DNA from: an uncultured Candidatus Saccharibacteria bacterium
GTDB lineage: Bacteria; Patescibacteriota; Minisyncoccia; Phycocordibacterales; WO2-35-19
DNA: 54,159 bases
NCBI GenBank assembly: GCA_964455485.1
Contig: CAYVXT010000034.1
Coordinates: forward strand, 1 to 54,159
Direction of reading: 5' to 3'
The notes beneath the pieces were generated by a model. The model was not told where the DNA came from. It saw only the letters and a program-made list of their open reading frames with translations, and searched no databases. Each line of letters begins with the position of its first letter. Within the stretch, counting starts at the first letter, position 1. Positions 27,607 to 50,604 of this stretch are shown piece by piece. Position numbers and translations under genes: made by a program.

Positions 27607-27679
27607 CCGCCCGTAGCTCAGTCGGTAGAGCAGCTCCCTTTTAAGGAGAGGGTCGTAGGTTCGATTCCTACCGGGCGGA
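27607..27679 (+). tRNA. tRNA-Lys (anticodon UUU)
   Basis: Cloverleaf by hand: acceptor CCGCCCG/CGGGCGG (an unusual C1-G72), D arm GCTC-AGTCGGTA-GAGC, anticodon loop CTTTTAA, T arm GTAGG-TTCGATT-CCTAC, discriminator A. CCA is not encoded. Confidence 0.9.
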
Positions 27680-27849
27680 CAGTGTTCAAAAATGTGCTTT
27701 TTTATTTTGAGTAATGGGTCATTCTTGGTTTAGGTAACGAAATTTTACTATAAATGAGGAGTAAAATAGCATGAAATATGTAAAACTACGATATAAACCT
27801 AGGTAAGTTGAGGGAGGAAAAAAGGAAATCAACACACCCGTTAAATTTT

Positions 27850-45999: not shown

Positions 46000-46395
46000 T
46001 CATTTTCTCTTTCTTTTGGTTCGTAACTCGAGCCTAACAAGAATACGGTTTGCTTGGTCAGGGTTGTATTTGACCCCAAACAAACTGTGAATTGCGCTGG
46101 AAATTTTTCTGCCAGACCACCTCCCTTTGAACCCAAAATTTTCCGGGCTATCGGCATAAATGAGAGGGATCTGAGTGATTTGATCCGCTCTCAATTTTGC
46201 TGGTCGGCCAGTTGATTTCCGTGCTTTTGCTCCTATGTGGCCATTGGCTAAGAATTGCGCATACCATCTAGATGCGGTGGCACGACTGACTCCATATTCT
46301 CTCGCAATCGCCGCTTGGCCGTATCCAGCATCAAAGAGTTTAAAAGCGGCAATTCTACGCTGCTCCATCTCTTCCCGGGATAAAAATTCTTTCAT
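46000..46395 (-). mobile_element. IS630/Tc1-type transposase N-terminal DNA-binding fragment (HTH domains only, no DDE domain)
   Basis: AAFKLFDAGYGQAAIAREYGVSRATASRWYAQF...GRPAKL...FGFKGRWSGRKISSAIHSLFGVKYNPDQANRIL shows the paired HTH / winged-helix pattern of IS630 transposases. The ORF stops after ~131 aa, 33 nt from the rluA-family stop. Visibly GC-rich relative to its surroundings. Confidence 0.6.
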
Positions 46396-46477
46396 TTGGT
46401 ACCCCCAATAAAACATAAATCATTTATTAATAAAGTCAATGAATTGAAAAATGGCCCAAAAATGATATATTTTGTGT

Positions 46478-49400
46478 ATGAAAGAGGAAAATACCAAATC
46501 TAAAGCCGCACAGAGAGAAGAAGAAATACTAAAATTCTGGCAGGATAACAAAATTTTTGAAAAAAGCCTTGAAAATACGCGAGCTCACGGATCAAAGGGT
46601 GAATTTGTGTTTTATGAAGGTCCTCCTACAGCAAATGCTAAACCCGCGTTACATCACCTTGAGGCAAGAGTGTTTAAAGACATAATTCCACGCTACAAAA
46701 CCATGCGTGGGTTTAGTGTGCCTAGACGTGCAGGTTGGGATACGCACGGTCTTCCTGTTGAGCTTCAGATCGAAAAGAAACTCGGATTAAAATCAAAAAA
46801 AGATATAGAAAAGTATGGAGTAGAGCAATTTAACAAAAAATGCAAAGAAAGCGTTTTCGAATACATAGGAGATTGGGAAAAATTTACTGACCGTATTGGT
46901 TATTGGGTTCTCAAAGAGAGCGCGTATTACACCTTCAATCCAGAATACATGGAAACAGTATGGCATGTGGTCAAAAAAGTGAATGATCAAGGTTTACTTT
47001 ATAAAGACTACAAGGTAGTACCTTGGTGTCCGCGATGCGGCACAGCGCTTTCTTCGCACGAACTTGCTCAAGGATATGAGGATGTTAAAGATTTGTCCGT
47101 TACAGTTAAATTTCGTTTGAAACCAGGTCAAAAATTTGGTGAATACGAAACTAAAGATCATGCTTATATATTGGCATGGACTACTACTCCGTGGACACTA
47201 CCGGGCAATGTTGCTTTGGCTGTGGGTGAAAAAATTAAATATTCTGCGTTAAGAGTTGAAGGTGTTTCAGAATTATTGATCCTTGCCACTGAAAGAGTTG
47301 CCGAAGTGTTAAAAGACCAAAAAATTGAAGTAGTACATGACGATATTTTAGGAAAAGATTTGGTAGGGCTAGAATACGAGCCTCTTTACCCATACCTTAA
47401 AGACAATCTTCCGGATTTGGAAAAAACAAAACTTGAAAAGGCATACAAAGTGTACTCGGCAGATTTTGTAACAACTGAAGATGGTACAGGTGTGGTGCAT
47501 ACCGCCGTTATGTATGGGCAGGATGACTTTGTTTTAGGTACTGAAATTGGTTTACCTAAATATCACTTAGTAAATGAAGACGGGACTTTTAAAAATGAAG
47601 TAAAAGAGTTTGCAGGACGGTTTGTAAAAGATGAGGATGTGGCAGTAGATATAATAAAAGACTTGGCGCATAGAAATCTTTTGTTTAAAAAAGAAAAGTA
47701 TGAACACTCGTACCCGCATTGTTGGAGGTGTAAAACTCCACTTATATATTTTGCAAGAGACTCTTGGTATATAAGAATGTCTGAATTAAGAGATAAGTTG
47801 GTAGCTGAAAACGAAAACATAAAATGGGTACCCGATCATATAAAAGAAGGTAGGTTTGGAGAGTGGCTTAGAGATATAAAAGATTGGGCAATTTCACGCG
47901 AAAGGTATTGGGGTACGCCACTTCCAATTTGGCAGAACGAAGCGGGCGGCATCACGGTGGTCGGTAGTGTTGATGAATTAAAGCAAAAAGTTAAAAAATC
48001 TGGCAACAAATATTTTACTCTTCGTCATGGACAGGCTGAAAGTAATTTGAATGATTTAATAAATTCAAATCCTAGCAACATTTACCATCTTACTGAAGAG
48101 GGTAGGTCTCAAGCAAAAATTGCAGCTCAAGATTTACCTAAGGATATTGACTTTATAATCTCTTCTCCTTTTATAAGGTGTAAAGAGACAGCTGAAATTG
48201 CTCGCGTTGCTCTAGGTCTTGATGAAAAAAATTTGGTAGTGGATGAACGTATAGGTGAGTTTAAAAAGGGAGAAAATTTGGAAGGTAAACCATGGGAGGA
48301 ATATTGGAAGCTTTTCAAAAACACTAAAGAGAGATTTGAGATCTCACCAGATGGAGGAGAAACTCTTTTGGATTTAAACAAAAGGATGGGAAAATTTTTA
48401 TATGATTTAGAAAACAAATATTCTGATAAAAAAATCCTCATAGTCAGTCATGAAGGTCCTATAACGGCTCTTCATACTGTTGCCAAAGGGGTATCTGTGA
48501 GTGAAGCAATCAAAATAAAAGATGGTGGCGAATTTAGATCAGGTTTCGCAGAATTTCTAAATTTAGATTTTGTGCCATTACCTCACAACGAAAATTATGA
48601 GTTAGATCTACATAAACCTTACATTGACGAGGTGGTTTTGGTAGACGAAAAAGGACAGGAATTAAAAAGAGTGAAAGAGGTAATGGATGTTTGGTTTGAC
48701 TCCGGTTCAATGCCATTTGCCCAAGAAGGTTTAAAGAATTTGGATAAAATGCAGTATCCAGCTGACTTTTTTGCTGAAGCTATAGATCAAACACGTGGAT
48801 GGTTTTATACACTCCATGCTATCGGGATACTCATGGGTAAAGGTAGAGCGTACAATAATGTAATTTGCCTCGGCCACATTTTGGATTCTCAAGGTAAAAA
48901 GATGTCAAAGTCTGTTGGAAATATTGTGGACCCTTGGGTAATGATAAATAAGTATGGGGTGGATTCGCTCAGACTTTGGATGTACACCGTGAATCAACCT
49001 GGGGATTCTAAAAACTTTGATGAAAAAACAGTTGATGAATTGGTAAAGAAAACTTGGAACCCTCTAGAAAACATCATTTCGTTTGTAGAAATGTATGATT
49101 CTGAAAAAGTAAGTCCGTCATCTCAAAGTGAAGATGTTTTAGATAGATGGATAATCACTAGACTCATAGAACTCGTTAAAAACGGTACGAAAAATCTTGA
49201 TGAGTATGATATTTTTAGCGCAGGTCGACCAATACGCGATTTTGTATCTGATTTTTCTACTTGGTACATCAGAAGGTCGAGAGATAGGTTTAAGTCTGAT
49301 GATTTGAAAGATAAGAGCAATTCGCTTGCAACAACTAAATATGTGCTTCTTGAATTTTCAAAATATTTAGCACCTTTCACTCCATTTTTTGCTGAGTTTA

Positions 49401-49996
49401 TATATCAAAAAGTTAAAACTGAAAGCGGTCCCGAGAGTGTGCATCTTTGTAGTTGGCCATTTGATTCTAATCAAGACAAAGTCGACGAAGAGGTTTTGGA
49501 TAATATGAAAGAAGTAAGAAATACAGTTTCGTACGCTCTGGAAAAAAGAATGGCGGCAGGTATAAAAGTAAGACAGCCTTTAGGCAAGCTGAAAGTTAAA
49601 AGTGATAAGCTTAAGGGTGAAGAAGAATACATCAAGCTTGTAAAAGATGAAGTAAATGTAAAAGAAGTGGAATTTGATAATAGTTTGGAATCTGATGTTG
49701 AACTCGATACAAACCTCACAGAGGAATTAATAAAAGAGGGGAATGTAAGGGAGTTTATACGCGCAGTGCAGGATTTGAGAAAGGAAAGAGGTTTGTCTCC
49801 AAATGACAAAGTTAACTTGCTAGTTGAAACCGATAAGGAGGGTGAAGAATTTTTAATGTCTGCTAAAAGTGAAATATCAAAGCCAACAAATCTCCAAGAA
49901 ATACAGTTCGAGTCTAATTCTGGTAATGAATTGAAAATTGAAAACATGAATGGCGGTAATTCGGGTTGGAAATTCAAAATTGATTTAAAATTTTAA
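46478..49996 (+). CDS. ileS: isoleucine--tRNA ligase with a nested histidine-phosphatase-like domain
   Basis: FYEGPPTANAKPALHH (HIGH-region variant), WTTTPWTLPGN (editing domain), WAISRERYWGTPLPIW, DVWFDSGSMPFAQ, and KMSKS. An insert of ~200 aa at ~47999-48598 carries RHG, SPFIRCKETA, GET and SHEG motifs. Confidence 0.9.
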   Translation: MKEENTKSKAAQREEEILKFWQDNKIFEKSLENTRAHGSKGEFVFYEGPPTANAKPALHHLEARVFKDIIPRYKTMRGFSVPRRAGWDTHGLPVELQIEKKLGLKSKKDIEKYGVEQFNKKCKESVFEYIGDWEKFTDRIGYWVLKESAYYTFNPEYMETVWHVVKKVNDQGLLYKDYKVVPWCPRCGTALSSHELAQGYEDVKDLSVTVKFRLKPGQKFGEYETKDHAYILAWTTTPWTLPGNVALAVGEKIKYSALRVEGVSELLILATERVAEVLKDQKIEVVHDDILGKDLVGLEYEPLYPYLKDNLPDLEKTKLEKAYKVYSADFVTTEDGTGVVHTAVMYGQDDFVLGTEIGLPKYHLVNEDGTFKNEVKEFAGRFVKDEDVAVDIIKDLAHRNLLFKKEKYEHSYPHCWRCKTPLIYFARDSWYIRMSELRDKLVAENENIKWVPDHIKEGRFGEWLRDIKDWAISRERYWGTPLPIWQNEAGGITVVGSVDELKQKVKKSGNKYFTLRHGQAESNLNDLINSNPSNIYHLTEEGRSQAKIAAQDLPKDIDFIISSPFIRCKETAEIARVALGLDEKNLVVDERIGEFKKGENLEGKPWEEYWKLFKNTKERFEISPDGGETLLDLNKRMGKFLYDLENKYSDKKILIVSHEGPITALHTVAKGVSVSEAIKIKDGGEFRSGFAEFLNLDFVPLPHNENYELDLHKPYIDEVVLVDEKGQELKRVKEVMDVWFDSGSMPFAQEGLKNLDKMQYPADFFAEAIDQTRGWFYTLHAIGILMGKGRAYNNVICLGHILDSQGKKMSKSVGNIVDPWVMINKYGVDSLRLWMYTVNQPGDSKNFDEKTVDELVKKTWNPLENIISFVEMYDSEKVSPSSQSEDVLDRWIITRLIELVKNGTKNLDEYDIFSAGRPIRDFVSDFSTWYIRRSRDRFKSDDLKDKSNSLATTKYVLLEFSKYLAPFTPFFAEFIYQKVKTESGPESVHLCSWPFDSNQDKVDEEVLDNMKEVRNTVSYALEKRMAAGIKVRQPLGKLKVKSDKLKGEEEYIKLVKDEVNVKEVEFDNSLESDVELDTNLTEELIKEGNVREFIRAVQDLRKERGLSPNDKVNLLVETDKEGEEFLMSAKSEISKPTNLQEIQFESNSGNELKIENMNGGNSGWKFKIDLKF

Positions 49997-50019: not shown

Positions 50020-50604
50020 TTGTATCATAAACATCATACAAAAGCTGTTGTAATCGGGAATATGAGTGAGAGCATCGATAGCTCAAGGGTTATTTTGTTT
50101 ACTGATCAATTTGGTTTGGTGTATGCAAGAGTCCAGGCAGCTAAAAATATTAGCTCAAAGCTAAGGCATGGTACTCAAGACTATACTTATGGCCAATTTT
50201 CACTTATTAAAGGCAAGTCTGGGTGGAAGGCCGTGTCAGTAATACCTGAGAAAAATTATTTTGAATTATTAAAGAGCTCAAATCAAAAAACTGCAGTAAT
50301 GGTGAGTGTGTTGAACTTACTTAAAAAATTATCACCTGAGGAAGATAGTGCATCGCCGCTTTTTGAAATAATAAAAAATTTTTTAGAGTTTATCGTTCAT
50401 TCAAAAGAAGGGGATGTGATGCTTGCAGAATGTTTAGTCTTATTGCGAATCCTTCATACCCTTGGATATATGCGACATGATCCAGAGCTTAGTCTACCAA
50501 TTTCAAGAAGTGAAATTTCTGCTGCAGATATTGAACTTGTTGCGCCCCGGCGGACTAAAATCATAGCTCTTATAAATGAATCGTTAAGGGCTACCCATAT
50601 TTAA
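50020..50604 (+). CDS. recO: DNA repair protein RecO (short form)
   Basis: The N-terminal OB-fold pattern (TKAVVIGNMSESIDSSRVILFTDQFGLVYARVQAAKNISSKLR) is followed by a helical domain. TTG start. Moderate certainty. Confidence 0.6.
   Translation: MYHKHHTKAVVIGNMSESIDSSRVILFTDQFGLVYARVQAAKNISSKLRHGTQDYTYGQFSLIKGKSGWKAVSVIPEKNYFELLKSSNQKTAVMVSVLNLLKKLSPEEDSASPLFEIIKNFLEFIVHSKEGDVMLAECLVLLRILHTLGYMRHDPELSLPISRSEISAADIELVAPRRTKIIALINESLRATHI

Follow-up and report, generated by a model that had tools for sequence, protein, structure and literature searches.

A histidine phosphatase domain nested in the type-2 isoleucyl-tRNA synthetase of Patescibacteria, with a free-standing counterpart encoded beside ileS

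Introduction

Few enzymes are as well studied as the aminoacyl-tRNA synthetases. Their accessory domains are known to serve in editing, in tRNA binding and, in eukaryotes, in signalling, and a synthetase furnished with an extra domain is a known kind of protein. The nearest precedent for what follows is the isoleucyl-tRNA synthetase (IleRS) with a GNAT domain (NF040702, ileS_w_GNAT), an NCBI-curated exception in which IleRS is likewise joined to an unrelated catalytic domain. Here I describe a different pairing, encoded by the ileS gene of a 54,159-nucleotide stretch of DNA (contig CAYVXT010000034.1, analysed over its full length and called the window below): a type-2 IleRS (IleRS2) that carries a domain of the branch-1 histidine phosphatase (HP) superfamily inside its catalytic core. 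The protein is the IleRS2 of a Patescibacteria bacterium of the class Paceibacteria (formerly Parcubacteria). In NF040702 the extra enzyme is a GNAT acetyltransferase, and the window protein, at 326.7 bits against a cutoff of 1999, is not a member of that family.

Folded inserts in the class Ia Rossmann body that leave the synthetase active are familiar from the CP1 editing domain and from the leucine-specific domain of leucyl-tRNA synthetase (LeuRS), both of which are ancient and deal with the aminoacyl ester or with how tRNA is positioned, whereas the domain in the window belongs to a phosphoryl-transfer superfamily, is lineage-specific and also occurs as a separate gene. From the phosphatase side, PspA (4ij5/4ij6), GpgP (Rv2419c), TIGAR, CobC and PhoE share the fold and the catalytic constellation of the insert at 19-28% identity, but these proteins are free-standing or fused end to end, and none is nested in the catalytic domain of another enzyme. 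The mycobacterial RNase HI/CobC-like acid phosphatase (Rv2228c family, NF005567) likewise joins an HP to an enzyme that acts on nucleic acid, a pairing for which no rationale is agreed; there, however, the fusion is C-terminal and the partner enzyme a different one, and although NF005567 is the second-best NCBIfam match of the insert, it scores 70-73 bits against a cutoff of 326. Finally, among characterised IleRS2 enzymes, that of Deinococcus radiodurans shares the ALHH motif of the window protein and that of Priestia megaterium (8c8u-8c9d) its fold and type-2 C-terminal domains, but in these enzymes the CP3 subdomain, which houses the phosphatase here, holds just a small zinc-binding or helical subdomain.

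A phosphatase domain inside the synthetase core

The insert matches the Pfam family His_Phos_1 (PF00300) at aa 517-681 of the full protein (E=9.9e-28, 97.6 bits against a cutoff of 21.7) and, when the segment 47999-48598 is taken alone, at E=4e-29 and 102.1 bits against the same cutoff (residue numbers count from TTG 46472, where the uninterrupted forward-strand open reading frame (ORF) 46472-49996 begins). An earlier sequence-only reading had placed an HP-like domain within the IleRS core at 47999-48598, claimed that the signatures of the superfamily occur there in the correct order, and proposed a His_Phos_1 profile as the check; the match far above cutoff, the modelled fold and the catalytic residues bear this out. 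The motifs follow one another as RHG (aa 518-520), N525, SSPFIRCKETA (with R569), DERIGEF (with E596), GGE630T and SH660EG, that is, in the branch-1 order of RHG, second Arg, acidic proton donor and second His. Modelled in isolation the domain reaches a pLDDT of 88.4, and Foldseek aligns it with probability 1.00 and TM 0.66-0.78 to PspA, GpgP, TIGAR, CobC and PhoE, with a riboflavin-pathway phosphatase also among the solved matches; PspA is the best match by sequence in the PDB (E=3e-10). No specific NCBIfam family claims the domain: the highest-scoring, the archaeal short model for cofactor-dependent phosphoglycerate mutase (dPGM; dPGM_arch, NF038349), gives 76.3 bits with the full protein and 80.6 with the insert against a cutoff of 225, the remaining dPGM models (TIGR01258 and others) give 20-35 against 261-320, and CobC (66-69 against 162.9), PspA (49-53 against 350) and SixA (25-29 against 74.5) all fall below their cutoffs. 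Judged by profile, motifs and predicted fold, the insert is a genuine member of the branch-1 HP superfamily, with motifs nearer those of phosphatases than those of canonical mutases.

The same architecture is shared by all 120 closest homologues, which are 56-69% identical to the window protein (Pfam), and comparison among them separates what is constrained from what is not. No homologue departs from N512, R518, H519, N525, G544, S565, R569, E630 or H660 (120/120), and E596, the Glu that donates the proton, is kept in 119; meanwhile mean identity to the window protein is 44% over the insert as a whole, compared with 68-71% over the two core halves of the synthetase, and the cap region of the insert is weakly conserved and carries indels. 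By this pattern of residues purifying selection acts on the HP active site, and since the active-site residues are held invariant in an otherwise divergent domain, the nested phosphatase is probably catalytically competent.

The host is equally well defined. TIGR00392 (ileS) scores 873.9 bits against a cutoff of 621.4 in two matched stretches with the insert between them (NCBIfam), just as Pfam finds tRNA-synt_1 in two halves with His_Phos_1 between. This equivalog score, the KMSKS and CP1 editing motifs (both TTTPWT and GTG.VH), the C-terminal domains and the fold together place the protein in IleRS2. The full-length AlphaFold2 model (mean pLDDT 90.1, pTM 0.81) finds as its top Foldseek matches the P. 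megaterium IleRS2 structures 8c8v/8c8w (33% identity, E=1e-85), followed by the Thermus thermophilus enzyme 1ile (37%) and the yeast enzyme. The earlier reading that the flanking synthetase regions look intact thus stands for the KMSKS and CP1 editing motifs, but not throughout, as the HIGH signature reads ALHH and the zinc cysteines of CP3 have been lost. The former belongs to the G/AXHH type tied to mupirocin hyper-resistance in IleRS2, and the D. radiodurans enzyme works with ALHH, which makes it hyper-resistant to mupirocin (PMC10485003). The variants GIHH (59) and ALHH (51) account for most of the 120 closest homologues. A correlation between the type of HIGH motif and the phosphatase arrangement was considered and dropped, both motif types occurring with both arrangements.

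The insertion site and the age of the arrangement

CP3, whose boundaries I take from the definitions for the Candida and yeast enzymes, is the most variable subdomain of IleRS and accommodates different folds (PMC7191050). Alignment with insert-less relatives puts about 200 aa in place of a connector of roughly 4-11 residues that lies between two zinc knuckles (CxxC ... CxC), downstream of the W.ISR.RYWG.P.P motif, which agrees with the earlier statement that the Thermus enzyme has only a short linker here. By this alignment the insertion point is the tip of CP3, in the loop joining the two (former) zinc knuckles. At the entry junction N512 is invariant and the K, S and G of KKSGN are strongly conserved across the 120 homologues, while the "DLHKPYID" portion of the exit segment aligns with insert-less IleRS. 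In the full-length model the insert has a pLDDT of 93-98 and the entry and exit linkers are likewise confident, at 93-97. The four CP3 cysteines are kept in insert-less IleRS and in several nested relatives (compare P0077 and P0133); the window protein has QN..EAGG and VD-EKG in their place (47933-47950 and 48635-48660). Given a nested protein that lacks them, CP3 can apparently do without bound zinc once it houses the phosphatase.

A chimera had been named as one way in which the proposal could fail, and an alignment of orthologues as a way to date the insertion. Misassembly is ruled out by the 120/120 top homologues, drawn from NCBI, JGI, ENA and Logan assemblies on contigs of up to 600 kb, and by at least 486 stretches encoding both junctions and the insert in a scan that took a single genome for each GTDB species. 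Neither junction shows a shift in GC content (0.34-0.39), the only repeats flanking the insert are short chance ones, and a mobile-element signature at the insert is absent, Pfam finding synthetase domains and His_Phos_1 only, with even GC and no repeats. Where the homologues are named, they are assigned to Zambryski-, Nomura-, Parcu- or Paceibacteria or to Minisyncoccia, and the names among the 486 are mostly Paceibacteria/Parcubacteria lineages. An exhaustive profile search with the insert as query also recovered nested forms with IleRS flanks of just 36-45% identity to the window protein; flanks diverged down to 36% identity indicate that the arrangement is old.

The source names of the 120 homologues are "isoleucine-tRNA ligase", "class I tRNA ligase family protein" or "hypothetical protein", and never phosphatase. 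Full-text literature searches found no paper in which a histidine phosphatase or phosphoglycerate-mutase domain is linked to IleRS, and papers of 2023 and 2026 on IleRS evolution make no mention of a phosphatase. The concern that many characterised IleRS might already have the insert annotated holds at most in a formal sense: many database sequences hold it, but their names omit the phosphatase and no describing paper was found.

A free-standing counterpart beside ileS

Free-standing HP proteins of about 188 aa belong to the same subfamily as the insert and have in common with it an unusual N-x-Y ahead of the RHG strand. Genomic context was compared for nine of these relatives, and in 9/9 the HP gene adjoins an insert-less type-2 ileS. 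Seven of the HP genes are codirectional with ileS and directly upstream of it, and six of the seven lie 1-8 nt away or overlap it at the start and stop codons; of the other two loci, one has a 376-aa ORF between the HP gene and ileS (L081 6431-7561, without an NCBIfam match) and one has ileS adjacent but convergent. The usual order at stand-alone loci is argS-HP-ileS-recO, with argS upstream wherever the contig reaches and recO downstream in four. At nested loci recO follows ileS in 61 of 80, as it does in the stand-alone loci L085-L088 (tblastn), and argS precedes ileS in 35 of 80, with a gap of less than 120 nt in 12 and no separate HP gene. By gene order and subfamily, the nested and stand-alone loci are orthologous, the HP being either the gene before ileS or a domain within IleRS.

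One further candidate, the frameshifted P0274 in L082, was rejected as a stand-alone HP and left out of the nine. Positions 1-3600 of L082 hold a nested ileS broken by frameshifts into four called genes (frame 3->1->2->3), a pseudogene or an assembly error.

Two deep IleRS2 clades, one with HxGH and PPFATG and the other with G/AxHH and PPTANG, each hold both arrangements, with the nested HP in the same CP3 loop, which means that the switch between nested and separate forms happened at least twice and into the same loop. The neighbour-joining trees of host and HP are star-like and do not settle the direction or the exact number of fusion or fission events; the two-clade split alone is taken from them, and the motif pairs HxGH versus G/AxHH and PPFATG versus PPTANG support it independently. 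The nested HP domains are acidic (mean pI 5.6, net charge about -7), whereas the stand-alone ones are basic (pI about 9.4). I considered this contrast as a sign of docking to tRNA or IleRS and rejected it, since the neighbouring arginyl-tRNA synthetase and IleRS are also basic in three of the four genomes checked, which makes the contrast a proteome-wide bias.

Further copies and further partners

Some IleRS hold two HP domains, one in CP3 and the other between the KMSKS/stem-contact region and the anticodon-binding domain. The cluster with this architecture has six members, on contigs of up to 1 Mb, and is represented by the 1419-aa P0234 (L094 6001-10260). Neighbours of ileS of this kind are purA, DAHP synthase and an SLH protein, a neighbourhood not like that of a reduced candidate phyla radiation (CPR) genome; the two-HP architecture thus probably extends outside Patescibacteria, and the earlier appeal to a reduced genome as the rationale for the fusion is weakened. 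Further IleRS carry tandem HP copies or a copy right behind DVWFDSG.

Furthermore, the domain is not confined to IleRS. A ValRS-like (valyl-tRNA synthetase-like) ORF, P0139 (L091/L092 366-3851), strings together three complete HP domains and a fourth that is truncated; a short synthetase segment separates the first two, and a new ORF opens 10 nt past the stop. Its repeats represent a more generic lineage of the superfamily, and the ORF may be a true multi-domain ValRS, one part of a split gene or a gene in decay. Sua5/YrdC is the threonylcarbamoyl-AMP synthase of t6A tRNA modification, and one such protein, P0263 (L093 977-2140, a complete ORF), has a C-terminal HP of the same subfamily as the IleRS insert where the SUA5 domain usually is. 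A word-based search with the HP domain of P0263 found six stand-alone relatives and no more Sua5-HP fusions, which leaves a single example. All these extra copies retain the catalytic residues (RHG/RHA, R, E, H).

Features of the locus and its surroundings

Coordinates within the window are collected in Table 1.

Table 1. Features of the window ileS gene, its nested phosphatase and the adjoining recO-like gene.
Feature	Position	Strand	Basis
ileS, type-2 IleRS with nested phosphatase	46478..49996	+	deposited protein 1172 aa, ATG at 46478, identical to database protein P0001
Class I signature, non-canonical ALHH (G/AXHH type)	46646..46657	+	sequence
CP1 editing motifs TTTPWTLPGN ... GTGVVHTAVMYGQDD	47180..47527	+	sequence; columns invariant or nearly so in homologue alignment A1
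CP2-CP3 linker WAISRERYWGTPLPIW	47885..47932	+	sequence coordinates
N-terminal CP3 arm, aa 488-511, ending at the conserved KKSGN junction	47933..48004	+	alignment with insert-less IleRS
Nested branch-1 HP, aa 512-707, ~195 aa	48005..48592	+	PF00300, residue invariance and fold
Predicted catalytic residues	R518 (48023), H519 (48026), N525 (48044), R569 (48176), E596 (48257), E630 (48359), H660 (48449)	+	sequence
Exit linker and C-terminal CP3 arm FVPLPHNENYELDLHKPYIDEV	48569..48634	+	F, P, H, N, E, D, L, H, P columns nearly invariant
Rossmann fold second half: DVWFDSG 48686-48706, DQTRGWFY 48785-48808, KMSKS 48899-48913	48686..48913	+	invariant columns in A1
Anticodon_1 and type-2 C-terminal domains (DUF5915)	49142..49945	+	PF08264 E=5e-27, PF19302 E=2e-17
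recO-like gene	50020..50604	+	RecO_C 22.6 bits (cutoff 22.1); RecO_N 21.1, below cutoff 27

The window keeps the order ileS-recO, followed by a DUF11 protein, and upstream of ileS it has tRNA genes, a pseudouridine synthase and a helix-turn-helix (HTH) transposase-like ORF. The last, of 138 aa (HTH_23/HTH_32; 46000-46416, reverse strand), stands directly upstream of ileS and has a GC content of 0.46-0.47 against about 0.36. With argS at that spot in many relatives and a higher-GC HTH ORF here, a local rearrangement by a mobile element is suggested.

Elsewhere in the window, ARAGORN calls a "tRNA-Stop" with anticodon TTA at 27607-27680 on the forward strand. Its loop, CUUUUAA, has the usual U33 and A37 when read as tRNA-Lys(UUU), and TAA is the commonest stop of the window's long ORFs (26 of 40). 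Judged by its loop, this gene is almost certainly tRNA-Lys and not a suppressor.

What the phosphatase may do

The reading I favour, at a probability of roughly 60%, is that the domain is an active phosphatase functionally partnered with IleRS, the nested form being the covalent version of a dedicated partner that sister lineages keep as a separate gene. Catalysis, a physical partnership and a substrate are what I infer here, from the architecture, conservation, fold and genomic linkage observed. By analogy with the family, Arg518, Arg569, Asn525 and His660 would hold a terminal phosphoryl group for attack by His519, giving a phospho-histidine intermediate as Glu596 protonates the leaving group, and water would then free the phosphate. 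IleRS, ValRS and Sua5 all form an adenylate with ATP, releasing pyrophosphate and later AMP, and for this reason I rank a phosphorylated by-product or ligand of adenylate formation as the likeliest substrate, pyrophosphate first and AMP-like nucleotides next; the module would thereby pull or protect isoleucine activation. The weakly conserved cap and the several insertion sites tolerated fit a small or generic substrate. Pyrophosphate as the specific substrate is nonetheless a tentative proposal, and taken by itself a rather unlikely one.

Several points weigh against this reading. Hydrolysis of a phosphoanhydride such as pyrophosphate is atypical for branch-1 members, the known precedents being the acyl-phosphate donor of bisphosphoglycerate mutase and, in branch 2, AppA and PPIP5K. 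A role on pyrophosphate or AMP also leaves the choice of IleRS as partner unexplained; conserved synteny can be historical, and recO, a gene unconnected with translation, sits in the same cluster. Resolution in the neighbour-joining trees is poor, the ValRS-like contig has low coverage (about 2x) and a truncated last repeat, and the Sua5-HP fusion rests on one sequence. Inorganic pyrophosphatase had no match in the window or the fetched loci, a scale at which its absence is uninformative.

A broader version, which I would put at a little under an even chance, makes the phosphatase a built-in and so far unrecognised part, catalytic or regulatory, of how isoleucine is charged across much of the bacterial tree. 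The HP, whether a separate subunit or nested in the synthetase, would then dock at CP3, and would serve by hydrolysis of a phosphorylated product or inhibitor, such as pyrophosphate, at the synthetic site, by repair of the tRNA-Ile 3' end or as a phospho-histidine switch tied to metabolic state. Repeated nesting in the same CP3 loop suggests a docking geometry, and such a geometry keeps the repair and regulatory roles among the candidates to be weighed.

In the repair role, the domain would act in cis on A76 of tRNA-Ile before charging, stripping a 3'-phosphate, an opened 2',3'-cyclic phosphate or a (pyro)phosphate added by a toxin. RelA/SpoT-like toxins do pyrophosphorylate tRNA CCA ends, the same CP3 loop is nested in two IleRS2 clades, which suggests that position matters, and the stand-alone HP gene is flanked by two tRNA synthetase genes. 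Moreover, CP3 begins right behind the W.ISR.RYWG linker, whose yeast counterpart lines the pocket for tRNA A76 and reveromycin (PMC7955072). Against this, the nearest solved structures are all small-molecule phosphatases, a need specific to IleRS (and rarely ValRS) goes unexplained, Sua5 does not act on the tRNA 3' end and its fusion misfits, and the nested domain with its acidic charge is unlike the tRNA-binding domains usually appended to synthetases. Nor is any member of the histidine phosphatase superfamily known to act on RNA 3' ends, and on balance I consider the repair role unlikely.

The main deflationary alternative is that the domain is a housekeeping metabolic enzyme mechanistically unconnected with aminoacylation, a missing dPGM or a phosphoserine or sugar phosphatase, that became fused merely through its adjacency to ileS. 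Phosphoglycerate mutase is reported absent from several shallow Parcubacteria clades, possibly through divergence (Jaffe et al. 2020, PMC7304191), and a metabolic enzyme could fill that gap; in NCBIfam the insert scores highest with the archaeal short dPGM, the annotation of one stand-alone member reads "putative phosphoglycerate mutase", the closest solved relatives are metabolic phosphatases, and the presence of recO in the cluster indicates that the synteny is not purely functional. However, the scores for specific families (dPGM_arch, CobC, PspA) lie far under cutoff, and the second-His and post-Glu motifs, set against those of dPGM, look phosphatase-like and not like those of a canonical mutase. 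Fusion of adjacent genes yields end-to-end proteins and not one internal CP3 loop occupied in two clades, the linkage to ileS holds in 9/9 even after an inversion, and the two-HP organism with its purA, DAHP synthase and SLH neighbours is unlikely to be without a mutase. I judge this alternative as improbable as tRNA repair.

Less probable again, and in my view very unlikely, is a phospho-switch, in which a phospho-histidine set by a glycolytic donor gates aminoacylation via CP3, or a protein phosphatase that dephosphorylates IleRS, for example in the KMSKS loop. The linkers (KKSGN..., FVPLPHNENYELD) are highly conserved and confidently modelled, consistent with a fixed geometry to CP3, and the second HP copies are inserted across the KMSKS region from the first; SixA, PGAM5 and Sts-1 are protein phosphatases of the family, and other class I synthetases are targets of HipA-type toxin kinases, which inhibit them through phosphorylation near KMSKS. 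Yet the stand-alone-HP neighbourhoods compared contain no kinase or toxin, no feature sets the domain apart from small-molecule phosphatases, and a stand-alone form comes less naturally to an allosteric switch. That the insert is a decayed, non-catalytic spacer or binding module, as the variability of CP3 (PMC7191050) and the poorly conserved, indel-bearing cap might suggest, or an assembly artefact is essentially refuted by catalytic residues that stay invariant (one in 119/120) while the remaining domain diverged, by recurrence in hundreds of independently assembled genomes, and by the even composition and intact reading frame.

Implications

For annotation, database names met in the searches made here cover the synthetase part alone or read "hypothetical protein". 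In metabolic reconstruction of CPR bacteria, phosphoglycerate-mutase-like matches may be IleRS partners, or the reverse. For protein engineering, the CP3 tip offers a naturally validated permissive site for the insertion of a whole enzyme. In any of the roles named under the broader version above, class Ia synthetases would have recruited phosphoryl-transfer chemistry several times independently: IleRS at two sites, ValRS, and the t6A enzyme Sua5. A conserved, apparently active phosphatase in IleRS, with its counterpart beside ileS, would indicate that isoleucine charging in Patescibacteria and some other bacteria has a need not recognised so far, for which removal of a by-product, repair of the tRNA end, detoxification of an inhibitor and metabolic gating are the candidates.

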